Of a stretch of DNA of 64,000 nucleotides, positions 41,187-52,232 are shown in pieces. The position numbers were made by a program, and so were the translations under genes. Every line of letters starts with the position of its first letter. Positions within the stretch are counted from its first letter, which is position 1. This DNA is from Hadesarchaea archaeon (GTDB lineage: Archaea; Hadarchaeota; Hadarchaeia; Hadarchaeales; Hadarchaeaceae). The notes beneath the pieces are model-generated. The model saw only the letters and a list, made by a program, of their open reading frames with translations, had not been told where the DNA came from and did no database searches. The stretch is taken from the NCBI GenBank assembly GCA_004375695.1, contig SOKQ01000021.1:11505-75504 (forward strand), given 5' to 3'.

Positions 41187-42355
41187 ATATACTATACATC
41201 ACAGAAATTTACCCGGATCCCAAGCGAGGAATCGGCGTATGGGGCGGGGGGGAGCGACAATTCTATGAGATTTCCCGCCGGGTGGCCGACCGCGGACATA
41301 ACGTTACAATTTTAACGTGTCGTTTCCCCGGCCAGCCTGCCGAGGAGATTGTCGATGGTATGAAGATACATCGAATCGGGCTAAGCAGGAACCCAAAGAC
41401 CGGCGGTGCACGCAAGACCGTTCTGCCTATCTTTTCCTATATTATTAAGACGGCAAGACGAGCGATGAAATTGGCCCCTGACGTGATTCACTGCAACACG
41501 TACTTTCCAGTATACCCGGGCAAAATGGCGGCACGATCGAAAGGGGGACAGCCGGTGAGCACGTGCCACCACATCTCGGGCCTGCGGGGGGGGATGGAGC
41601 GCCAGCGCTCGCTGGTGTGGGGGTTGCTGGGACACCTCGCCACGACCATCGCCGCCCGACTGCCGCACGACCGAATAATCTCCGTTTCGCCGCAGTGCAG
41701 ACAAAAGCTGATTGATCTCGGCATCCGGGAAGACAAGATCACCGTGATCCCTAACGGAGTAGACTTGAAGCTCTTCGACTCAACTCGCGTGGAGAAAGTT
41801 CCTAACCAAATCCTGTATGTGGGGCGCCTGGTGGACTTCAAGCACGTGGACTGGCTCATTCAAGCATTTTCAGAGGTTTTGAAGGAGGTGCCTAGCGCCA
41901 AGCTGAAGATAGTCGGTGGAGGTCCCGAAAGAGGCAATCTAGAGGTGCTCGTTAAGAAGCTAGGTCTCCAGGCGCACGTCACTTTTACTGGTCTTACCCC
42001 AACCTACGATGCCGTGACGCGTTACTACAACGAGTCCGAGGTCTTCGTCTTGCCCAGCACAGTTGAGGGGGAAGCCATCGTGCTTAAGGAGGCGATGGCG
42101 GCGCGTCTGCCTCTTATAGCGATGAACATCCCCGGCTCCGGTGTCTTGAGCTTGATGCGGGACGGGAAAAATGGGTTCCTGCTCGAGCCTGGGCGACCGG
42201 AGCTCATCGCTGAGAAGCTGGTTCACCTCCTGCAGAATGAAGAATTGAGGAAAGAGATGGGGGCAGCGGGCAGAAAATTTGTTGAGAAGTACGATTGGGA
42301 TGTCATTGCCGAGCGAACCCTTCAGGTGTACCAAAAGGCGATAGAGGATAGGTGA
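41183..42355 (+). CDS. glycosyltransferase family 4
   Basis: GT-B fold with an E-x7-E region (EGEAIVLKEAMAARLPLIA). Confidence 0.75.
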   Translation: MNILYITEIYPDPKRGIGVWGGGERQFYEISRRVADRGHNVTILTCRFPGQPAEEIVDGMKIHRIGLSRNPKTGGARKTVLPIFSYIIKTARRAMKLAPDVIHCNTYFPVYPGKMAARSKGGQPVSTCHHISGLRGGMERQRSLVWGLLGHLATTIAARLPHDRIISVSPQCRQKLIDLGIREDKITVIPNGVDLKLFDSTRVEKVPNQILYVGRLVDFKHVDWLIQAFSEVLKEVPSAKLKIVGGGPERGNLEVLVKKLGLQAHVTFTGLTPTYDAVTRYYNESEVFVLPSTVEGEAIVLKEAMAARLPLIAMNIPGSGVLSLMRDGKNGFLLEPGRPELIAEKLVHLLQNEELRKEMGAAGRKFVEKYDWDVIAERTLQVYQKAIEDR

Positions 42356-43155
42356 TAGAGGTGCCCCTTCTCAGTGTTATTATGTCGGTTTTTAATGGGG
42401 AGAAATATGTTAAAGAAACGGTTGAGAGCATCCTAAATCAATCGTTCCGGGATTTCGAGTTCATAATAGTGAACGATGGCTCAACAGATGGGACGCCAAG
42501 GATATTGAGAAACTTTGATGATGATAGGATAAAAATAATTGATCAGGAAAACCAAGGGCCAGCGAAGGCGCGAAACAGAGCTATAAGGGTCTCGAAAGGG
42601 AAATACATCGGGATAATAGATTGCGGAGATGTAGCCTTTAAGAAAAAAATGGAAATACAAATAAATTTTCTTGAAAGAAATAAGGAGATTTATGGTGTAG
42701 GTGCTTGGGCCAATATCGTTGATGAAGACGGAAAAATAGTTGGAGTAATGGAGCAATCTACAGAATTTAAAGATATAAAGAAAACAATCCTAAAATCTAA
42801 CACATTCATACACTCCTCTATGGTGTTTAGGAGAAAGCTGTTTGATAAAATTGGACTTTACGATGAGTCATTCAAATTCGCTCATGACTATGATCTAGTA
42901 ATAAGAGCAGTAAGAAAATTCAAAATTGTTAACATACCGCAAGTTTTATTAAACTATCGGATTTCAGAGGAAAGCATCTCTTTTCAGAAGCGAAAACAAC
43001 AGTCGTATTATGCTTTGAAAATAAGAGCACGGGCTCTGGGTCATGGTTATCCTACGTGGCAGTGCATTTATCTTATAAGACCTTTCTTTTCTTTTCTAGT
43101 ACCAGCTGATTTGAAGAATGTTATCGTGAGGAGATTTTTGTGGCGCCCTCGTTAA
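42352..43155 (+). CDS. glycosyltransferase family 2
   Basis: LSVIMSVFNGEKYV...IIVNDGSTD GT-A motifs. Locally low GC. Confidence 0.7.
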   Translation: MIEVPLLSVIMSVFNGEKYVKETVESILNQSFRDFEFIIVNDGSTDGTPRILRNFDDDRIKIIDQENQGPAKARNRAIRVSKGKYIGIIDCGDVAFKKKMEIQINFLERNKEIYGVGAWANIVDEDGKIVGVMEQSTEFKDIKKTILKSNTFIHSSMVFRRKLFDKIGLYDESFKFAHDYDLVIRAVRKFKIVNIPQVLLNYRISEESISFQKRKQQSYYALKIRARALGHGYPTWQCIYLIRPFFSFLVPADLKNVIVRRFLWRPR

Positions 43156-43212
43156 CGTATTTCGTTTAAGCGATATGAAACTTTATCTGATAATGCGATA
43201 AAAATGTCCACC

Positions 43213-44250
43213 TCATTTTTTCTCTTGTACCAACGCTTTATTATAAATATTCATAATTTGTCTTGCACAAATATCCCATCTGAATCTTCTTTCAACCCTT
43301 TTTCTTCCTTTTTGTCCCATTTTTCGTGCTAGGGCCTTATCAGATAGAACGGTAAGTATTTTTTGAGATAGATCATTAGAATCCCCCGTTTGAAAAAAAA
43401 GCCCAGCATCTCCCACTACCTCTGGGGGGGATCCTTGATTCGACGCTACAACGGGGATTCCGCACGCCATCGCTTCGGTTAAAACATATCCGAAGCCTTC
43501 ACAGATAGAAGTAAATGCAAAAACATTAGCAGCGGCGTAATATTCATTTATCTTTTCAGCAAACGCTGGAAAGATTACAGAGCTTCTTAATTGCGGTGAA
43601 TTCTTAACAAAAGATTTAATATTTAATTTTAATGGCCCTTCGCCCAACATAATGAACTTAGCGCTTGGGTACTTGGGCAATATTAAAGGAATGGCATTTA
43701 AAAATGTAAATGGGTCTTTCCAAGGAATAAAACGTCCGACCCAAAGCATCACTGGATTATTTTTTAATCCCAATTTTTTTCTTATGTATCTCCCTGATAT
43801 CGATGGATTGAATTTGTTCAAATCTACTCCATGGTAAACGGTATATGTTTTTATTCCATAATTCTTCTTCAACCTAGAGGCGGCAAATTGGGAAATTGAG
43901 ATTACTGCACGTGCATTTCTTGAGATTAAAGAAGTTAATTTATGCTCAATAACATGAAAAAAGTCAACTTTTTTAGATAACCCATATTCGTATTTAAGAA
44001 GATCTTTAGCCCCAACTCCATGTACTGTAAAAATATATGGAATACCAAAAAACTTATTGATGACTAGGGGTTTTAGCCCATGGCATGCATAATTCACATG
44101 TATTATATCCGCATTTTGGAATTCGCGGATAAAATGAAATGGATGCCTTAATGAAAATTGTGCAAATTTGACCGTGTGTCCCCTTTTAGTAAATTCTTTT
44201 GCGAGTTGGATAGAATATTCCCCAGGTGAATTGGTTATCACTATATTCAA
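43213..44250 (-). CDS. glycosyltransferase family 4
   Basis: GT-B C-terminal EGFGYVLTEAMACGIPVV. Very AT-rich gene. Confidence 0.7.
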   Translation of the reverse strand: MNIVITNSPGEYSIQLAKEFTKRGHTVKFAQFSLRHPFHFIREFQNADIIHVNYACHGLKPLVINKFFGIPYIFTVHGVGAKDLLKYEYGLSKKVDFFHVIEHKLTSLISRNARAVISISQFAASRLKKNYGIKTYTVYHGVDLNKFNPSISGRYIRKKLGLKNNPVMLWVGRFIPWKDPFTFLNAIPLILPKYPSAKFIMLGEGPLKLNIKSFVKNSPQLRSSVIFPAFAEKINEYYAAANVFAFTSICEGFGYVLTEAMACGIPVVASNQGSPPEVVGDAGLFFQTGDSNDLSQKILTVLSDKALARKMGQKGRKRVERRFRWDICARQIMNIYNKALVQEKK

Positions 44251-44265
44251 ACGAAACTCCTCATG

Positions 44266-44913
44266 TTAAATTTTCTTCTTCAAAATAGCAACGAGTATTA
44301 ATGCATTAACTCGAGGAGGGAGAAGCATCCTGCAAAGATTTAGAAAAATCCTGCCTTTAAGACTCTTCGGTTTATCAACATGTCGAACATAATAAAGATT
44401 CTTAATTTTAAAGCCAAAGCGCTTCGCAAGTTCAGCTAATGTCTCACCGTTGTGCCATATTATATGCCCGGGACTCATTTTTACTTTCAAACCAAAAAGC
44501 CCTTTAGTACAAAAAGTAGCGTAGTATGCGTTTGGTGTGGATATCACTAGAACTCCATCATCTCTCAAGTGCCGGCGCATATTTTCTAGAAATAACCCCT
44601 GGTTATTTACATGCTCGATTACTTCACCTGCAACAATCACATCAAATTTTTTCTCTAAATGTATATTTTCTGCATTGCCTAGGACAACATTGTAGCCACG
44701 CGACCGCAGCCTTTTGATGTTTTTTTCATCGCAGTCCACGCCAATAACTTTCCAGGCAACACTGGCTATTCGCTCATGTAACTCTCCAGGCTTTTCAAAA
44801 TCCGCGCTATAACCTGCACAACCTACATCGAGCACTTCGCGTCCTTTACATAAAGGTAAAATGATATCCTCTCGCCTTTCAATGATTTTTTTATTGCCCT
44901 TTCGTTTGCTCAA
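44266..44913 (-). CDS. class I SAM-dependent methyltransferase
   Basis: VLDVGCAGY motif I and DVIVAGEVIEHV motif II/post-I. Confidence 0.65.
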   Translation of the reverse strand: MSKRKGNKKIIERREDIILPLCKGREVLDVGCAGYSADFEKPGELHERIASVAWKVIGVDCDEKNIKRLRSRGYNVVLGNAENIHLEKKFDVIVAGEVIEHVNNQGLFLENMRRHLRDDGVLVISTPNAYYATFCTKGLFGLKVKMSPGHIIWHNGETLAELAKRFGFKIKNLYYVRHVDKPKSLKGRIFLNLCRMLLPPRVNALILVAILKKKI

Positions 44914-45646
44914 GCTTATCAGCCTCTTTTAAAGATCCGAAAGTTCCTATGTCGTATCTTGCCCCCTTAAACAAAAAACCATAGATTGTTGCCCCATCTT
45001 CCTTCATCAGCTGTATGGAATCCGTTAGCCATATCTCGTTGTGTTTTCCAAGATTTGTTTTTTCGATATATTCAAAGACCACAGGTTTTAAAACAAGCAA
45101 TCCTGCAATACTGAGATAAATGTTCTCCATTTTGTAGGACTGCGCTTCCTCCAGCGTCGGCTTTTCGATTATCCCAAGAACCTTGTTGTTCGCATCAATT
45201 TTAACTATCCCAAATCTTCTGGGGTCCTTGACGGGGTGCAAGACAAGCGTTGCGTCAGCTCTCTTCTCTTCATGAAATTTTACTATTTCCTTCATGACCT
45301 CGTAGGGTTTGAGGTAGTTGTCCCCATAAATGACTACAAAGTCCTCATTGCCGATGAAATCCTTGCCTTGGTAAACTGCATGCGCCGTCCCCTTCAACTC
45401 CTCTTGGATCTTGTATGAAATGTCGACCCCAAGCCTCTCGCCGGAACCGAGATAATCCATAATCGCCTCTTTCTTCCGTCCAACCACGACCAGAATTTCC
45501 CCTATGCCACCGGCTTTCAAGACGTTTATTGCATGCTCGATTACCGGCTTAGTGCCGACCCTTATCATCTCCTTCGGAATCGCTAAGGTTAGAGGCCTCA
45601 ATCGCATCCCCTCGCCAGCTGCTAGGACAATCGCTCTTTTTATCAT
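44891..45646 (-). CDS. sugar-phosphate nucleotidyltransferase (glucose-1-P thymidylyl/uridylyltransferase-like)
   Basis: LAAGEGMRLRPLTLAIPKEM signature. Confidence 0.75.
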   Translation of the reverse strand: MIKRAIVLAAGEGMRLRPLTLAIPKEMIRVGTKPVIEHAINVLKAGGIGEILVVVGRKKEAIMDYLGSGERLGVDISYKIQEELKGTAHAVYQGKDFIGNEDFVVIYGDNYLKPYEVMKEIVKFHEEKRADATLVLHPVKDPRRFGIVKIDANNKVLGIIEKPTLEEAQSYKMENIYLSIAGLLVLKPVVFEYIEKTNLGKHNEIWLTDSIQLMKEDGATIYGFLFKGARYDIGTFGSLKEADKLEQTKGQ

Positions 45647-45654
45647 GCAGATAC

Positions 45655-46539
45655 CTACTCTCTAACACCTCTTTCGGCTTTGATACGTTCGTTTATCTCG
45701 GTGACCGCTTTCAAGAGCTTTGGCTCACAACTCAATTTCTCAGAAAAACTGATAAACGCATCTAAATCCTTTGGAAGGCATTTGCCCCCGAAAGCTTTTC
45801 CATGGATTGTCCCGTATTTGCCGATTCGCTTGTCCATCCCGGCAACTTTGGCAACTAAGTTTGAATCAATTCCCAATCTCTGGCAAATGTAGTAGATCTC
45901 ATTCCAATAGGAGATCCGGCTGGCCAAAGCACAGTTACATGCATATTTGATCATCTCAGCCGTTTGTAGATCGGTTCGGATAATCGGAACTTTTAATGGC
46001 TCATACAATGCTTGAAGGACATCTCCGGAACGCTTGTCGAACTCCCCGATTACCACCCTATCCTCGCTGAAGAAGTCCCGGGCATATGATTTGTTGTCGG
46101 TCCAAGATCGATGAATTTCAGTAAGGAACTCCGGATTCACACACACTCCGATATCGGGGCCAACCTTCTTACCTGAGTGTTCTTCCAAAAGCGGAATAAC
46201 CACTTTTTCTGTTGTCGTGGGTAGCACAGTACTCTTAACGACCACCACGTGATAATCATTTTTTTCTTTCAGACAACGGGCTAGATTTTCAGTTACGGAT
46301 CTAATGTAAGATAAGTCAATTTTCCGATCTTTTGTGGGTGTTGGGAGGCACAAGAATGAGATATCAGACTCGCGAATAGCGTTGCTCAGCTCAGTGGTGG
46401 AATCAAGGCCTGAATTGCGAAGATTTTGAACCTTTTTTTCATCGATATCGTAGAATATCACTCGGTTTCCGAACTCTTTGAAACCCCTGCCGACGATTGT
46501 TCCCACAATACCGCTGCCGAGAATACTAATTTTCGCCAT
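45655..46539 (-). CDS. NDP-sugar dehydrogenase (UDP-glucose/GDP-mannose dehydrogenase family), short form lacking C-terminal domain
   Basis: ILGSGIVG Rossmann start and central GGKCLPKD catalytic-Cys motif. Only 294 aa against the usual 400+. Confidence 0.6.
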   Translation of the reverse strand: MAKISILGSGIVGTIVGRGFKEFGNRVIFYDIDEKKVQNLRNSGLDSTTELSNAIRESDISFLCLPTPTKDRKIDLSYIRSVTENLARCLKEKNDYHVVVVKSTVLPTTTEKVVIPLLEEHSGKKVGPDIGVCVNPEFLTEIHRSWTDNKSYARDFFSEDRVVIGEFDKRSGDVLQALYEPLKVPIIRTDLQTAEMIKYACNCALASRISYWNEIYYICQRLGIDSNLVAKVAGMDKRIGKYGTIHGKAFGGKCLPKDLDAFISFSEKLSCEPKLLKAVTEINERIKAERGVRE

Positions 46540-46582
46540 TCGTACACCCTTGTTATCGTATCTTCTAGCTTTTAATTAAAGT

Positions 46583-46783
46583 CTATTTCCCGATAAAGTT
46601 CCCAGCAGCCTTGACCAGCCACCCAGGCATCGGCACTATCCGCGCTATGAGCTTCAGATCGTCCTTCGTCACCGCTTTTGTTGCCAGGACCCACACCCCG
46701 TAGAATAGGAGGCTCGGTATCATGACGGCAAATGCTTCACGCCAGAGTGGCAGCACTAGATCCTCTCCCATGATTTCCCCCAC
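46583..46783 (-). pseudogene. duplicated 3' fragment of the Wzx-like flippase gene (about 51 C-terminal codons)
   Basis: Translation EAFAVMIPSLLFYGVWVLATKAVTKDDLKLIARIVPMPGWLVKAAGNFIGK is about 85% identical to the C-terminus of the 47376..48965 product. Confidence 0.6.
46590..46760. repeat. direct repeat copy 1 (about 170 bp, about 90% identical to 47383..47553)
   Basis: Nucleotide alignment by eye: catcggcactatccgcgctatgagc.tcagatcgtc.ttcgtcac.gcttttgttgc.aggacccacaccccgtagaa. Confidence 0.65.
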
Positions 46784-46837
46784 GATGTCGGGTCGAGCTT
46801 TCAGTAGATTTTATAGGCAACGGCAGACGAACAACCT

Positions 46838-47068
46838 TTGGTGTGGGAAATGAAAAAAAGATTTAACATCGTTATCGAAAGAGACGAAGATGGATATTAC
46901 GTGGCTTCGGTGCCCGAGTTACCGGGTTGCCATACCCAAGCTAAGAGCTTAGACGAACTGACCGCGCGTATGGACGAGGCAATCAAATTGTACCTCGAAG
47001 TTGAAAAAGAGGCTATTGATGTCAGCACTGAATTTGTTGGCGTGCAGGTAGTAGAGGTATCCATCTGA
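46838..47068 (+). CDS. hicB: HicB-family antitoxin (UPF0150)
   Basis: FNIVIERDEDGYYVASVPELPGCHTQAKSLDEL core. Confidence 0.75.
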   Translation: MVWEMKKRFNIVIERDEDGYYVASVPELPGCHTQAKSLDELTARMDEAIKLYLEVEKEAIDVSTEFVGVQVVEVSI

Positions 47069-47295
47069 GACTCAAACCCCTCTCAGCAGAAAAAGTCATT
47101 AAAGTTTTAGAAAAGATCGGTTTCAAAAGAGTGAGGCAAAAGGGAAGTCATCTTTTTCTCAAACACTTGGATGGGCGAATTACTGTAGTACCGATTCATA
47201 AGGGTGAGGAAATTGGGCGCGGTTTGTTGAGGAAGATAGTCAGGGATTCCAAGCTAACTAGGGAAGAATTTCTGAAATTTATTGAGGAAGTTTAG
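47065..47295 (+). CDS. hicA: HicA-family toxin (YcfA-like), no canonical start codon found
   Basis: Frame translates LKPLSAEKVIKVLEKIGFKRVRQKGSHLFLKH...V, a HicA fold. It overlaps the hicB stop. No in-frame ATG/GTG/TTG follows the upstream stop at 47029, so the start is unclear. Confidence 0.55.
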   Translation: MRLKPLSAEKVIKVLEKIGFKRVRQKGSHLFLKHLDGRITVVPIHKGEEIGRGLLRKIVRDSKLTREEFLKFIEEV

Positions 47296-47375
47296 CTGCG
47301 GATCCGATTTCAAGAAAAAAGCTACACGGAACGGAGATCGTCGTTTCTAAGCAATAAACGTCCATTACGAACTAG

Positions 47376-48965
47376 TCACCTCCCAACAAATCTCCCAGCA
47401 GCCCTGACCAGCCACTCGGGCATCGGCACTATCCGCGCTATGAGCCTCAGATCGTCTTTCGTCACTGCTTTTGTTGCTAGGACCCACACCCCGTAGAACA
47501 CGAGGCTCGGTATCACTACCACAAATGCCTCCGGCCAAGGTGACAGCACCAAGACGGATTTGAGTCCAAAAATGATGAGCAATGTGAGCACCCCCCCAGT
47601 TACCGTTTTGAGCAGCGATAAAGCCGGCACGGTGAATTTAACGAGCTTCCGCGCGTAATAGAACATCAGGACTAGGCCGAGCGTGTAGGCGGAGAAGGTC
47701 GCTATCGCTGCTCCTTCGATTCCATAAGTCGGGATCAACACCAGGTTTCCCGCTAGGTTCAGCCCGGCCATCAGGGCAACGACTTTTGTGTTGATAATCG
47801 GCTTGCCTATCCCATTTATGGTGCTCACGAGGATGGCGTATAGCATGTAAACGATTGCGGCCCCGGCGAGAATCTGGAGAACCGTTGTCCCGGCCAAGTA
47901 TCTCGAGCCGAACAGCAGGTTGATAACTATGTCTGGAAACGCTATGAAGACGAGCGCCGCCGGGATGATTAAAATAAATGAAAATTTGATCAGAAAGTGT
48001 AGCGCGTTCCTCAAGAGTTTCCGCTCGCGCCTCGCCCAGAGCTCGGATATCATCGGAAAGAGAACGACCACCAAGGGGGTCACGAGGTACCACAGGATGC
48101 GAGCGGCCGGCTGCGCGGTCTGGTAGAAGCCGACCTGTTTCGAGGACCAAAAACCGGCGATCATCAGGGTATCCGTGTAGCCGATGATAAGTCCCCCAAG
48201 TCCACCGATGAAAACCGGCAGCGCAAACACGAACAGCTTTTTGATCAGTGATTTTGTAATCTGGACTTTTTCCTTGATGACTCGGGGATAGCCCCTCCAG
48301 AAGAGGAAAAACCCGAGAACCGCCACGACCGATAAAGCGAGCATATAGGCGTAAGCGGCTCCCTCGATACCGATACCGAACAGGCCGACGAGGAGGATCG
48401 CCGAGAGTAAAACGAAGAATATTTCAAAGAAACTCATCAACGCATACGCCGGCATGTTCTGAAAGCCCTGAAATGTCCACCTGAAAGTGAAGGAAAAAAT
48501 CGCCACGAAGAACCAGATGCTCAAAATTTTGACCACGAGCGACGCATTTGCCATCCCGACAATAGCCAGATCGGCAGGGCTGGAAAATGCGAGGACAATC
48601 TGATCGGAAAATACGAACAACATCACTGCGACCAAAAACGCGAGGATTGCCTGGAAGAGCAGGATAAATGTCATGGACGATTTTATTCTGCCGTACTGCC
48701 CCCTGAGCTTGAACTCGGGGATGTGCTTCACCACGGCCGAACCCAGGCCAAAATCACGGAAGAGCGCGAAGAAGGAGACCAACGCGATGGCCGTGTAAAA
48801 AAAGCCGTACTCTTCAACGCTGAACGAACGTGCGAGGAACATTCGCAGCAGGAACGCTATGAAGCCCGATGCGATGAGCGCCACGAAAACTATGGCACTG
48901 CCCTTGACCAGGCGCCTAGCGTAGCTTTTGGGGTCGGGCATTTCATCCTCCTCGAACGGTTCCAC
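47376..48965 (-). CDS. polysaccharide biosynthesis protein, Wzx-like MOP flippase
   Basis: 529 aa, about 14 TM helices, MATE/Wzx-like pattern. Confidence 0.75.
   Translation of the reverse strand: MEPFEEDEMPDPKSYARRLVKGSAIVFVALIASGFIAFLLRMFLARSFSVEEYGFFYTAIALVSFFALFRDFGLGSAVVKHIPEFKLRGQYGRIKSSMTFILLFQAILAFLVAVMLFVFSDQIVLAFSSPADLAIVGMANASLVVKILSIWFFVAIFSFTFRWTFQGFQNMPAYALMSFFEIFFVLLSAILLVGLFGIGIEGAAYAYMLALSVVAVLGFFLFWRGYPRVIKEKVQITKSLIKKLFVFALPVFIGGLGGLIIGYTDTLMIAGFWSSKQVGFYQTAQPAARILWYLVTPLVVVLFPMISELWARRERKLLRNALHFLIKFSFILIIPAALVFIAFPDIVINLLFGSRYLAGTTVLQILAGAAIVYMLYAILVSTINGIGKPIINTKVVALMAGLNLAGNLVLIPTYGIEGAAIATFSAYTLGLVLMFYYARKLVKFTVPALSLLKTVTGGVLTLLIIFGLKSVLVLSPWPEAFVVVIPSLVFYGVWVLATKAVTKDDLRLIARIVPMPEWLVRAAGRFVGR
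47383..47553. repeat. direct repeat copy 2 (within 3' end of intact flippase gene)
   Basis: See copy 1. Confidence 0.65.
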
Positions 48966-49040
48966 CGTGATATCTGCCTAAATCATTAAAAATAGTGAGC
49001 CCGAGGGATTCATCTAAGCGGGAAACAGGCAATCAAGCTT

Positions 49041-49796
49041 TCAGACATTGGAGCCAATCCATTCCTGAACAGCTTTGACGATGCGTTTTACGCTCTCCTC
49101 TATGAGGGTTTCTCCCTTTTCTTTAGAGGCTTCACTGACTCTTCCATGATAACCAGCCCAAGTCTCTCGATGAGTTTCCCCACACACTACATGAAGTGCC
49201 TCATTCGCGCTTCCGGGTTTTAGGTCGATGTCTTTTCCTTTGCTCAGTTCCACCGCCTCGGGTTTGATCGCTTGAACTACTGAAGTTTCCAGCGGACCAC
49301 CGTGACCGTGCCCCCCGCTTTGAGAGAAGAAGCCCAACGAATTAACGAAAGACTCTGGGAGCGTCTGCCACCAATTAATTAGCAGGACAAATCGGTCCGG
49401 AAATTCATCGGCAATAACCTCCCCCGCGGCCTTGACCACCTCGATATTTCCGTCGTGCGCGTTTAGCACGAGTATTCCTTTCACACCCGCTGCTAGGATG
49501 CCACGAAATACCTCGGTCAGATACTCGATCATTGCGTCTGTTCTTACGGACACGGTTCCCGGATATCCCTTGGTGGCTGATGGGCAATGACTGTAAGCAA
49601 TCAGGGGGAAAAGTACTCCCCCCAGTCTTTTTGCAACCCGTTCTGCGATAGCGGTGGCGATGATGCTGTCAGTGCCGAGTGGAGCGTGAGGCCCGTGGAA
49701 CTCGATACTCCCCATCGGAAGAATTCCCAGGGAGGCCCCGCGAAGCTGTTCCTTGGCACGAAATCCGGTAACGTTAAGAACCTCAACATGTTCCAT
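49041..49796 (-). CDS. creatininase-family amidohydrolase
   Basis: LGILPMGSIEFHGPHAPLGTDS N-terminal signature, 251 aa. Confidence 0.7.
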   Translation of the reverse strand: MEHVEVLNVTGFRAKEQLRGASLGILPMGSIEFHGPHAPLGTDSIIATAIAERVAKRLGGVLFPLIAYSHCPSATKGYPGTVSVRTDAMIEYLTEVFRGILAAGVKGILVLNAHDGNIEVVKAAGEVIADEFPDRFVLLINWWQTLPESFVNSLGFFSQSGGHGHGGPLETSVVQAIKPEAVELSKGKDIDLKPGSANEALHVVCGETHRETWAGYHGRVSEASKEKGETLIEESVKRIVKAVQEWIGSNV

Positions 49797-49855
49797 TCTA
49801 TCCTATCACCCATTTTCACTATTTTGATTTAAGATTGATGTAGAACGGCACAAAA

Positions 49856-49935
49856 TGGCGGGCCCGCGGGGATTCGAACCCCGGATTTGCAGCTTTCTTC
49901 GCCAAGATAGAAGGCTTGCGGGTGTTGCCACTTGC
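49856..49935 (-). repeat. partial tRNA-Arg(TCT) copy A (3' two-thirds, retains intron, carries a 13-nt insertion, ends ...CGGGCCC-G-CCA)
   Basis: Minus strand reads GCAAGTGGCAACACCCGCAAGCCTTCTA[TCTTGGCGAAGAA]AGCTGCAAATCCGGGGTTCGAATCCCCGCGGGCCCGCCA. It matches the full gene at 52143..52232. No matching 5' acceptor strand is found upstream. Confidence 0.6.
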
Positions 49936-50018: not shown

Positions 50019-50582
50019 ATGCTACGAGAATTCAGGAAATTCAAAGGCTGGGTAATCCTCGAGTTCTTCCTCACTCATCCTAGCACCAAAATCCACTTCA
50101 AGGAACTTGTCCGCAAGCTCAGAGTGAGCCCAAGAACGGCACAGATATATCTCAAGACATTTGAGGACGATGGAATTTTGACGAAAGAGAGAGTCGGGAA
50201 CCTGACAATTTTTTCTTTAAATAACGAGTTGCAACTGGTTAGAGAATTAAAAAAAGCGCATTTTCTCCTCGCGCTGAATGAACTCGGGTTTCTTGATCAT
50301 TTTTTAAAAGGGAATTCTGGGGCTGTATCTCTAGCGTTATACGGTAGCTGCGCGGAGGGAACCTACGATGAAAAGAGTGATATTGATTTTTTAGTCATTA
50401 AACGCAGGGAAGTGGACAAACGTTCATTCAAAGAACTCGAAAAGTGGGCGAAGAAGGAGGTCCTCGTCACATGCATGGAACCCGTAGAATGGAATAGGAA
50501 AGCCAAGGAAAAAGATCCGTTTTATCGCAACGTCGTCAGAAAACACATCCTGCTCTATGGGGCCGATTTGGTGGTAGAGTGA
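50019..50582 (+). CDS. minimal nucleotidyltransferase (MNT) with N-terminal wHTH
   Basis: ALYGSCAEGTYDEKSDIDFLVI (GS-x9-13-DxD) Pol-beta-type NTase motif. Confidence 0.7.
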   Translation: MLREFRKFKGWVILEFFLTHPSTKIHFKELVRKLRVSPRTAQIYLKTFEDDGILTKERVGNLTIFSLNNELQLVRELKKAHFLLALNELGFLDHFLKGNSGAVSLALYGSCAEGTYDEKSDIDFLVIKRREVDKRSFKELEKWAKKEVLVTCMEPVEWNRKAKEKDPFYRNVVRKHILLYGADLVVE

Positions 50583-51007
50583 ACCTGCGTGAATGTTTTG
50601 AGAAGGGCTTGTTGGTAAAGGGGCGAGCGAGCGAGGCAACTGTTGAGAGCACTATCCGGTTGGCTAAGCATAGCATCGAGAGGGCCGAAGGAAATTTTAA
50701 CATGGAGTACTTCGATGTTGCGTTCACCCTAGCGTATCAAGCGATGCTACATGCTGCTAGAGCGCTTCTTTTCAGGGATGGGGTCAAAGAAAGGAGCCAT
50801 GCTTGTGTGGTAGTGTACCTAAAGGAGAAATACAGAAGAAATTCACGGTTGATTAAGTATTTCAATCTCTTGGACTCTTACAGGATCAGCCGGCACGAGA
50901 TAGTGTACAGAGGAGGTAACATCCCACGGGAGGAAGCTTCCAGCGTGATTGAAGACGCTAAAGATTTCCTAAATACTGTGGAAAATATTTTGAAGCCGCA
51001 GCGGTAA
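50579..51007 (+). CDS. HEPN domain protein (partner of MNT)
   Basis: 4-bp overlap with the MNT gene and an R-x4-H motif (RISRHE) in the C-terminal helix. Confidence 0.65.
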   Translation: MNLRECFEKGLLVKGRASEATVESTIRLAKHSIERAEGNFNMEYFDVAFTLAYQAMLHAARALLFRDGVKERSHACVVVYLKEKYRRNSRLIKYFNLLDSYRISRHEIVYRGGNIPREEASSVIEDAKDFLNTVENILKPQR

Positions 51008-51061
51008 AACGTCTTGTTTAGATATCGCAAAAAACTAGCTCAAATAAGCCCCCTTAAAAGT

Positions 51062-51113
51062 GGGCCCGCGGGGATTCGAACCATAGGTCTGCAGCTTAGA
51101 AGTCTGCCGCCTG
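51062..51113 (-). repeat. partial tRNA-Arg(TCT) copy B (3' part, intron-less, degenerate T-arm)
   Basis: Minus strand reads AGGCGGCAGACTTCTAAGCTGCAGACCTATGGTTCGAATCCCCGCGGGCCCAC. It matches the spliced form of the 52143..52232 gene from the D-stem 3' strand onward. Confidence 0.55.
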
Positions 51114-51145: not shown

Positions 51146-52114
51146 ATGGTATTTAATATAAAGTCAGAGAAATCCATATATATTTATAAGACTGATATGG
51201 ATTTGACTAATATGGTAAATCAAGACATATTACTTGAGAAACTGCGTTCGATCCTCCTTGAACGGGTGAGTTTAGAGAACATCCCCGAGCCCGTGTGGAA
51301 GCGTACGGCGGCCCTTAACACATGGGGCACGAACGCGGTAGAGGGAAGCACGATCAGTTGGGAAGACGCGCAGCGCTTGCTCATTGATGGCAAGGGGGTC
51401 CCAGACAAGCCGGTGAGGGACATCATGGAGACGATTCAGCACGAGCGTGCATTCCGCTCGCTCCCGGAGCTTCGAGGGACGCCCTTGGATTTGAAACGCA
51501 TCCTCCAACTCCACGAATCCGTCTTCAGAGGAATCCTGTCCGACGCTGGCCAGTGGCGGCGGGCAAACGTCCGGGTGAGGGGGGCCGCCTTTACACCTCC
51601 GAGGATGGAAAAGGTCTTGGCAGAACTCGAGGTTTATGAGCAGGAGTACAGGAAACGGGATGTTGCAGGAGATGGGGTATTCAGGCTGGGCGCTTGGATG
51701 CATTTCGAGTTCGAACGCATTCACCCATTCACGGATGGAAACGGGCGGGTCGGCAGGCTGCTGCTGAACCTTCACTTCCTCAATCACAACTGGCCGCCAA
51801 TACATGTCCTCCCCCGCCATAGGGATAACTACCTCCACGCGCTGAACGAGGCTGCAAAGGGTAACCTCTCACCGCTGGAGCGCCTCCTGAAGCTCCTGAT
51901 GGGCGCTAGCCTCGTGGACCTTCTGCATCAACTGGGAACCTCCGTGGACGAGCTAATGGACCTGAAGGATATCTCAAAATTCGTGCCCTATGGACCAAAG
52001 TACTTGGCGCTCCGATGTCAACAGGGTGCCATACCCGCAGTTAAGACGGGCAGGGAATGGCAGACGAGCAGAAGGGTGCTTGATCTTTATTCCAAGCTTG
52101 TAGCTAGAAAGTAG
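51146..52114 (+). CDS. Fic/DOC family protein
   Basis: Canonical Fic motif HPFTDGNGRVGR. Start uncertain (several in-frame ATGs up to about 51212). Confidence 0.8.
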   Translation: MVFNIKSEKSIYIYKTDMDLTNMVNQDILLEKLRSILLERVSLENIPEPVWKRTAALNTWGTNAVEGSTISWEDAQRLLIDGKGVPDKPVRDIMETIQHERAFRSLPELRGTPLDLKRILQLHESVFRGILSDAGQWRRANVRVRGAAFTPPRMEKVLAELEVYEQEYRKRDVAGDGVFRLGAWMHFEFERIHPFTDGNGRVGRLLLNLHFLNHNWPPIHVLPRHRDNYLHALNEAAKGNLSPLERLLKLLMGASLVDLLHQLGTSVDELMDLKDISKFVPYGPKYLALRCQQGAIPAVKTGREWQTSRRVLDLYSKLVARK

Positions 52115-52142
52115 TTGGGATTTAGCTCCATTTGAAAAGGCG

Positions 52143-52232
52143 GGCCCGCGGGGATTCGAACCCCGGATCTGCAGCTTAGAAGGCTTGCGGGTCTGAGACT
52201 TGCCGCCTTATCCAGCTAGGCCACGGGCCCAT
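52143..52232 (-). tRNA. tRNA-Arg(TCT) with 16-nt intron inside the anticodon stem (about 29/30), CCA not encoded
   Basis: Minus strand reads GGGCCCG-TG-GCCT-AGCTGGATA-AGGC-G-GCA[AGTCTCAGACCCGCAA]GC-CTTCTAA-GCTGC-AGATC-CGGGG-TTCGAAT-CCCCG-CGGGCCC-G. After excision the product is 74 nt. Confidence 0.65.

Follow-up and report, generated by a model that had tools for sequence, protein, structure and literature searches.

Cis-mobilizable elements (CIMEs) of Firmicutes are islets flanked by attachment (att) sites that carry no recombination genes and accrete in tandem at the 3' end of a gene (for general context, see PMC5704250). In Escherichia coli, the cryptic prophage e14 (and also phage 21) is integrated in the 3' end of icd, which left a displaced copy of the gene end, the pseudogene icdC (PMC13626634). 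Archaeal elements likewise integrate in the 3'-distal parts of protein genes, as was found for 14 of 68 cases in Thaumarchaeota (PMC6563490), and integrated archaeal elements bounded by att repeats have been discussed as "gene capture" (She et al., 2004, as cited in PMC4158269). HicAB is a type II toxin–antitoxin (TA) system, and TA systems have been described as mobile two-gene modules (PMC2701414). Here we analyze a hicBA pair of a Hadesarchaea archaeon that is bracketed by the duplicated 3' end of a gene for a polysaccharide flippase. The window, i.e., the whole stretch of DNA that was analyzed, comprises 64,000 nucleotides of contig SOKQ01000021.1. The structure resembles an integration of the e14/phage 21 type or a scar of archaeal gene capture, but it lacks an integrase of its own and is therefore best called an integrase-less remnant that is CIME-like in structure.

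The gene that serves as insertion target (47376..48965, minus strand) encodes a Wzx/MOP-type flippase of 529 aa (PF01943, E = 1.1e-30; PF13440). Its last 56 to 58 codons are present again at 46583-46759 in unchanged orientation, and a repeat search returned a gapless direct repeat of 169 nt (46588-46756 and 47381-47549) with 86% identity and a spacing of 793 nt; when counted as 58 codons plus the stop codon, the repeat is 177 nt long. The initial annotation had reported this repeat in the same orientation at about 90% identity, a value that applies to the central 123 nt (92.7%) and not to the repeat as a whole. In the MAFFT alignment, the similarity of the copies sets in sharply at ~46759/47552 and ends at the stop codons, which are TAG (46583-46585) in the displaced copy and TGA (47376-47378) in the working copy; beyond these, the sequences are unrelated. 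A 20-mer of the repeat occurred exactly twice in the window, with no occurrence expected from 100 shuffles. As similarity is abruptly lost at either end of the repeat, a longer tandem duplication, which the initial annotation had named as a finding that would speak against its view, could be ruled out. An assembly artefact could also be ruled out, as the repeat-hicBA-repeat structure is shared by at least 10 independent assemblies (JGI, NCBI, ENA, Logan). Part of the 120-kb JGI contig L015 is 99.93% identical to the window over the 18 kb compared.

We refer to the displaced flippase end (46583..46759, minus strand, 58 codons plus TAG) as copy A and to the working flippase end (47376..47552, minus strand, 58 codons plus TGA), which is contiguous with the 529-aa open reading frame (ORF), as copy B. 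The 616-624 nt between the copies hold hicB (46850..47068) and hicA (47065..47295), both on the plus strand and hence convergent with the flippase gene, and no further gene, just as the initial annotation had it when it described the cargo as the TA pair alone. On the side of copy A, the insert begins with the junction and the hicB upstream region (46760..46849, plus strand), which has no counterpart in the empty site of the related locus L002 and is nearly invariant among 10 related loci; a TATA-like stretch in it, TTTTATAGG, may be a promoter element of hicB. On the side of copy B, the spacer from the hicA stop to the flippase stop (47296..47375) also has no counterpart in L002, and it contains, 3' of the flippase stop, a T-run on the minus strand (TTTTTTCTT).

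The geometry equals that of e14 and icd. In both cases, a protein gene was entered within its last ~55 codons and stays intact because the element brought along a substitute end, and the gene's own former end persists downstream as a direct repeat. In the record of E. coli K-12 that we checked, the e14-borne icd end and icdC share 165 nt at 92% identity, compared to 169-177 nt at 86% here, and the homology stops at the stop codon in both. However, e14 is a 15-kb element that encodes intE and xisE and can excise, whereas only 616 nt with hicBA and without a recombinase remain here; in addition, the insertion was made in an archaeon and has become fixed in a clade. With the elements of archaeal gene capture and the integrated mobile genetic elements of Thaumarchaeota, the locus shares direct repeats derived from the 3' end of the target and the aspect of trapped, decaying elements (PMC4158269, PMC6563490), and modules bounded by tRNA fragments are present in the same window. 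The reported att repeats measure 29-69 bp in Crenarchaeota and are shorter in Thaumarchaeota, in contrast to 169 nt here, and those elements contain several genes and usually an integrase or its fragments, in contrast to a single TA operon here. CIMEs resemble the locus in the integrase-less segment between att-like repeats at a gene 3' end and in the tandem build-up of modules at one site; unlike in CIMEs, the repeats here are far longer and only 86% identical, and no resident integrative and conjugative or integrative and mobilizable element using the same site was found.

The comparison with orthologous flippase loci, which the initial annotation had proposed, covered about 60 loci from Hadarchaeota, and those with 88-97% identity came only from metagenome-assembled genomes of this phylum. 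In L002 and L026, whose flippase is 88% identical, the gene order is creatininase, flippase, UDP-glucose/GDP-mannose dehydrogenase-family gene (UGDH) and NTP transferase. Here, UGDH starts 45 nt past the flippase stop, and the locus has neither hicBA nor a second flippase tail. The flippase of L002 has 529 aa, the same length as that of the window. In the window, the 3' flank of copy A (46540-46582) is near-identical to the flippase–UGDH spacer of L002, and the UGDH gene (45655..46539, minus strand; PF03721 and PF00984), the ancestral downstream neighbor of the flippase gene, is 94% identical to the gene that directly adjoins the flippase in L002 and L026. Because its 3' flank nearly matches the empty-site spacer, copy A represents the original gene end in its ancestral context. 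A relic of a second, paralogous flippase is ruled out by L002 and L026, which have one flippase adjoining UGDH with the same spacer. These comparisons support the duplication as a true insertion footprint with an empty site in relatives, and they bear out the earlier claim of an insertion that restored the interrupted gene end. A duplicated tail without an insert, the other finding that the initial annotation had named as speaking against its view, was seen in no fetched flippase locus.

All eight loci that have a flippase with at least 94.5% identity together with downstream DNA contained exactly one extra tail plus hicB. At 90% identity or below, neither the extra tail nor hicB was found in any locus, including about two dozen whose downstream DNA extends over at least 800 nt. 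This distribution points to one old insertion that would have occurred in the ancestor of one species-level clade and become fixed there. The repeat–hicBA–repeat unit, which the initial annotation had proposed to look for elsewhere in this or related genomes, was found at this one site only.

We favor the view, with a probability of roughly 0.55, that the structure is the scar of one old Campbell-type integration, i.e., of a single reciprocal crossover, in the flippase 3' end. In this scenario, a circular element would have carried its own flippase-tail homologue of ~175 nt ending at the stop codon, and this tail would have recombined with the chromosomal tail within a 20-nt block that is identical in both copies (46686..46705 and 47479-47498), the presumed crossover interval. 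The flippase gene would then read into the element-borne end, which is the 3' part of copy B, and the original end would be displaced downstream as a remnant, the 3' part of copy A, with UGDH still attached. All content of the element except the hicBA addiction module would have been lost later, followed by degradation of hicBA on the toxin side with HicB retained by purifying selection, and the remnant would now serve as a homology anchor for the exchange of adjacent sugar-gene cassettes between strains. What the data show are the duplication, the empty site, the single origin, the mosaic, the decay of hicA and the conservation of HicB; we infer that the intermediate was a circle, that either a tyrosine-type integrase or the homologous recombination of the host acted on it, and that further genes of the element were lost.

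One feature that points to a single crossover is a reciprocal mosaic of the two copies. Of the 13 informative sites in the first 54 tail positions, 12 link the outgroup L002 to copy B, and of the 15 in positions 75-177, 11 link it to copy A. The maximum chi-square method placed the breakpoint in the interval from tail position 54 to 75, i.e., in the 20-nt identical block; permutation gave P = 0.004 with L002 as outgroup and P = 0.044 with L001, with later tail recombination as a confounder. The 5' part of copy B matches L001 and L002. In comparison with L002, copy B has 9 differences in the first 147 nt but 8 in the last 30 nt alone, and these last ~30 nt presumably came from the inserted element. 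The flippase ORF of 529 aa is intact through copy B, so that the interrupted frame is restored, and the homology ends at the stop codon. This end of the repeat fits an element-borne copy that rebuilds the gene and would not be expected of a random staggered cut. In addition, MNT-HEPN and Fic modules between tRNA 3' fragments, one of which is lacking in L024 (see below), indicate that att-type accretion operates in this lineage.

Several observations nevertheless weigh against such an integration. No integrase, excisionase or replication gene was found between the repeats or within 10 kb on either side in Pfam searches with the near-identical L015. Searches of viral_contigs with HicA, HicB and the exact junction strings detected no free or viral form; the matches to HicA and HicB were only distant or partial (L096 with 57%, and L097 with 72% at a contig end with uninformative neighbors). 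The insert is tight around hicBA, with 90 and 80 nt of flank, and a clean loss of the remaining cargo would thus be required. Finally, the mosaic comprises only 28 informative sites, and as the tail frequently recombines between strains, later exchange could have made or blurred it. A transposon or insertion sequence was also considered as a candidate and rejected, as there is no transposase ORF in the insert, the inverted repeats that were found are not at the insert ends, and the duplication has 169 nt, unlike the short target duplications of fixed length that such elements make.

The recombination of the flippase tail just mentioned is seen in copy A. To its left, the sugar-gene cassette varies among strains (UGDH and NTP transferase, epimerases, FAD oxidoreductase and others), and the homology breakpoints of these cassettes fall inside copy A or at its end. 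The 3' part of the remnant varies with the adjacent cassette; in L016, it is a very different allele. In some strains, copies A and B show a gene-conversion-like identity. Judged by these breakpoints, the flippase-tail repeat is a hot spot of allelic recombination for the adjoining variable sugar-gene cassette, a point that the initial annotation had missed, as it had the second set of toxin modules in the window (see below). Gene callers annotate copy A as a 62-aa ORF (46583-46771) whose ATG lies in insert-derived DNA. This ORF is open in 9 of 11 loci, with an internal stop in L070 and an early stop in L024, and the ratio of nonsynonymous to synonymous polymorphism (pN/pS) among the remnants is 0.23, which is in the range of real flippase tails (0.19-0.23). 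Both the tail-like pN/pS and the open frame are explained by the repeated overwriting of the 3' part with functional alleles that are imported together with the cassettes. By contrast, the first ~37 nt of the remnant show no exchange among strains, and here remnant-only changes have converted PWPE, which is present in nearly all real tails compared, to LWRE with the loss of two prolines.

Toxin modules bracketed by repeats are not restricted to the flippase gene. In the whole window, there are only two real families of local direct repeats, the flippase tail and the 3' part of a tRNA, and both bracket toxin modules. The tRNA 3' part is present in three copies in direct orientation (49854-49903, 51056-51105 and within the gene at 52139-52230), between which an MNT-HEPN pair (50019-51007) and a Fic gene (51146-52114) are located. 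Downstream of the tRNA, the inserts are thus arrayed in tandem, with one module each, and the MNT-HEPN unit is missing from L024 precisely from one repeat to the next. In relatives, such tRNA fragments enclose an AbiEi_2 pair (L001, L007, L032), a DUF234 ATPase (L006) or a distant hicBA (L032). The window's own hicBA insert contains no vestigial tRNA fragment detectable with Rfam at E ≤ 10, and a match of 10 out of 11 positions to a tRNA fragment at 47296-47306 was judged to be due to chance.

HicBA pairs of the same family are also found in unrelated genomes with 69-74% nucleotide identity, and five of these loci are tightly bracketed by target-derived repeats. In L074 (3704-4271), hicBA lies between perfect 26-nt repeats of the 3' end of an intron-containing tRNA, and in L075 (3709-4269) between 19-nt repeats within tRNA-Ile; both have a period of 542 nt, and in both the hicA end adjoins the intact tRNA, so that hicBA is oriented relative to its target just as in the flippase locus. 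ARAGORN missed the tRNA of L074, which seems to bear an intron. The bracket is 23 nt long and perfect in L085 and ~100 nt long in L071. In L078 (2509-3446), an outer direct repeat of 152 nt with 96% identity duplicates the first ~39 codons and the upstream region of a gene for a 204-aa protein. Within this outer pair, a fragment of a tRNA 3' end stands on either side of hicBA; the two fragments are not identical, and an intact tRNA was not detected in the locus. Such nesting suggests that a hicBA which was att-flanked beforehand moved a second time. Six hicBA loci (L082, L087, L091, L092, L094 and L032) had no significant bracket within 400 nt, and in L032 the hicBA-like pair lies between tRNA fragments farther out. 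Altogether, hicBA was bracketed in 6 of the 12 independent loci counted, of which L074 and L075 may go back to one event. No conserved cassette ends were found across the hicBA loci, as the alignment was confined to the coding part, at 69-74% nucleotide identity. The repeats show att-type accretion of toxin modules to be common in these archaea, which supports the view of an integration at the flippase tail.

Other routes to the same structure have to be weighed against this view. One is homology-facilitated illegitimate recombination, in which DNA of a donor strain with hicAB directly downstream of its flippase would have joined the recipient by a homologous join in the flippase gene and an illegitimate join upstream of the recipient tail, so that ~170 nt were duplicated. 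Homologous exchange at the flippase tail is active in the population, with cassette breakpoints inside the remnant, the last 30 nt of copy B look foreign in comparison with L001 and L002, and no integrase is present between the repeats or within 10 kb of them. Yet the required donor arrangement, flippase and hicAB without a remnant, was seen in none of the ~60 flippase loci. Copy A should moreover be fully host-like in this case, but 12 of the 13 informative sites in its first 54 nt disagree with the outgroups; with pS values of 0.16-0.18 to L001 and L002, this exceeds a neutral-drift estimate that is rough and was reasoned rather than computed. We regard such a donor-derived origin as unlikely. 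A duplicative insertion by repair or replication, with staggered nicks that are filled in or with template switching, would have created an initially perfect long target duplication that later diverged by drift and allelic recombination. The variable length of the repeats around hicBA of the same family (19, 23, 26, ~100, 152 and 169 nt) would fit such a process, as would the nested hicBA of L078, which has no intact tRNA nearby, so that its secondary move was not due to a tRNA-specific integrase. What makes it quite improbable in our view is that the repeat boundary lies within a few nucleotides of the flippase stop, which a random staggered cut would not predict, and that the reciprocal mosaic and the divergence of 14% call for extra events. 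We also know of no described mechanism for duplications of 150-170 nt in archaea, which we count against it.

A broader possibility is that TA operons of Hadarchaeota and other archaea, such as hicBA, MNT-HEPN, Fic and the AbiE-like pairs, are natively minimal, integrase-less cassettes and not what is left of larger elements. Either factors acting in trans or a duplicative mechanism that has not been described would mobilize them, and they would land at gene ends (tRNA-Arg, tRNA-Ile, the flippase tail, the 5' end of a protein gene), where they would duplicate 19-170 nt, leave the target intact and build up integron-like arrays. This is compatible with the 6 of 12 bracketed hicBA loci, with the fact that both repeat families of the window surround toxin modules and with the nesting in L078; we consider it rather unlikely all the same. 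If the wider pattern of bracketed TA modules holds, it would amount to a so far undescribed cassette-type TA mobility in archaea. A last alternative concerns the present function of the remnant and not its origin, namely that copy A is maintained as a small gene for a 62-aa single-pass membrane peptide, transcribed divergently from hicB, whose usefulness would account for the persistence of the duplication. The ORF that is open in most loci, the ATG gained from the insert and the pN/pS equal to that of real tails would agree with this. However, the low pN/pS is explained by the repeated import of functional alleles, the non-exchanged 5' part has lost its two prolines, stop codons interrupt the frame in L070 and L024, and the 62-aa ORF has no Pfam match. 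We regard a maintained peptide as very improbable.

If the locus is the scar of a Campbell-type integration, it shows such an event in good resolution and with an interesting population history, although it is not surprising in principle. It would nevertheless be a clean, population-resolved archaeal case in which an integration left only an addiction module and an undamaged target gene, and in which the leftover copy of the gene end is reused as an anchor for swapping surface-polysaccharide cassettes. Selfish TA modules would in this way be tied to the edge of a hypervariable glycan locus in an uncultivated phylum.

By domain content, the gene pair is an ordinary short archaeal HicAB. The antitoxin HicB has 72 aa and matches PF15919 (E = 2.5e-10), and the 76-codon toxin gene hicA matches PF07927 (E = 8.5e-19), with the HicA domain spanning residues 9-63 and the GSH motif aligned with that of 76-aa homologues. 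As in known HicAB systems, a HicA_toxin domain, which is of the dsRBD-like type, and an N-terminal HicB domain, which is partially RNase H-like, are present, and the family is scattered over unrelated genomic contexts and TA-rich islands. The antitoxin gene comes first, an order that is also found in 10 homologous loci, and the hicB stop and the first hicA codon overlap by 4 nt as CTGA. In contrast to known HicAB, HicB lacks a DNA-binding domain, the hicA start position is occupied by CTG, and in most sister strains the toxin gene is lost or replaced and the antitoxin persists. PADLOC had no match for HicA, HicB or the 274-aa protein described below.

The missing start codon, already pointed out in the initial annotation, was confirmed: the hicA frame is open from 47065, where the codon is CTG, and hicA thus lacks the canonical start of a HicAB toxin gene. 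At the aligned position of the 10 homologous loci, ATG occurs five times, TTG three times, GTG twice and CTG never, often with the same 4-nt overlap. The best 120 HicA homologues listed have nearly all 74-78 aa, most of them 76, and the 12 full-length homologues that we read begin at the aligned position with MKLKP... or MRLTP... The first canonical start in the window is GTG at 47131. Its use would remove 22 N-terminal residues, a segment that we take to form the first helix of the fold. The CTG is present in every related strain that still holds hicA.

Many strains no longer do. At least 22 contigs carry a hicB gene for precisely the same 72-aa protein. Only 3 of the 10 HicB contigs shown have the hicB–hicA pair (L015, which represents the population of the window, L022 and L024), and in L024 a 2-nt deletion just past the start breaks the long hicA frame. 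In the other seven (L016-L021 and L023), hicB is followed by genes for a 274-aa protein and a 200-aa protein with an AbiEi_2 domain (PF09952), a pair of apparent AbiEi_2/nucleotidyltransferase-like type. The homology of these AbiE-type loci to the window breaks at 47080, within hicA codon 6, and resumes at 47369-47374, at or just past the flippase stop; because the break lies inside hicA, it was hicA that was replaced in the seven loci and not the reverse. The replacement took hicA and the downstream spacer together (47081-47373 in the window, 10223-11682 in L016). The 274-aa partner has no Pfam match and shows a distant similarity, with 35% identity over the first ~80 residues, to the partner of the AbiEi_2 protein in L001. 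In most sister strains, hicB is thus an orphan left beside a different, putative TA system.

Among 11 loci, hicB has 5 variable nucleotide sites, and all five changes are synonymous; with a synonymous-site fraction of 0.21, the probability of this outcome is ~4e-4. By this pattern, HicB is evidently under purifying selection, also where the toxin gene is gone. The CTG start, the frameshift in L024 and the replacement in 7 of 10 loci support a decay of hicBA on the toxin side. Such decay of a module is asymmetric, with the toxin lost or replaced and the orphan antitoxin conserved. Of the earlier characterization as a mobile or decaying cassette, the decaying part is supported by our data. For current mobility there was no evidence, as hicBA with its flippase repeats occurs at one site, is fixed in the clade and has no integrase, and no free copy was found in viral_contigs.

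The tRNA gene behind the MNT-HEPN and Fic units is itself unusual. The 92-nt gene (52139-52230, minus strand) was called tRNA-SeC(tca) by ARAGORN. Over its full length, it can be aligned with the tRNA-Arg(TCT) located directly upstream of the flippase gene in the distant loci L004, L039 and L049, and tRNA-Arg(TCT) is annotated at this position also in L008 and L035; the difference is a 16-nt insertion in the anticodon-stem region. The gene is probably an intron- or insertion-bearing tRNA-Arg, in which case the tRNA-SeC call is wrong.

On the other side of the flippase gene, the variable cassette corresponds to a low-GC block (~42300-46540; 0.31-0.47, flanks ~0.55) with glycosyltransferase, methyltransferase, NTP-transferase and UGDH genes. 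In sister strains, this block is swapped for unrelated sets of sugar genes, with the breakpoints in the flippase-tail remnant. The 294-aa UGDH-family protein matches the N-terminal and central domains and has no C-terminal UDP-binding domain; L002, L026 and L070 have retained this short form with 92-94% identity, and in L018 and L023 the same position is taken by a gene of the UGDH family that also codes for 294 aa.

The spacer between the flippase and creatininase genes (~49005-49057) is a further insertion point. It holds a second MNT-HEPN pair in L016 and L019 (13513-14506 region) and a gene with an Amidase_2 domain in L018 and L023, and in distant relatives the creatininase gene is absent and the tRNA-Arg directly precedes the flippase gene.

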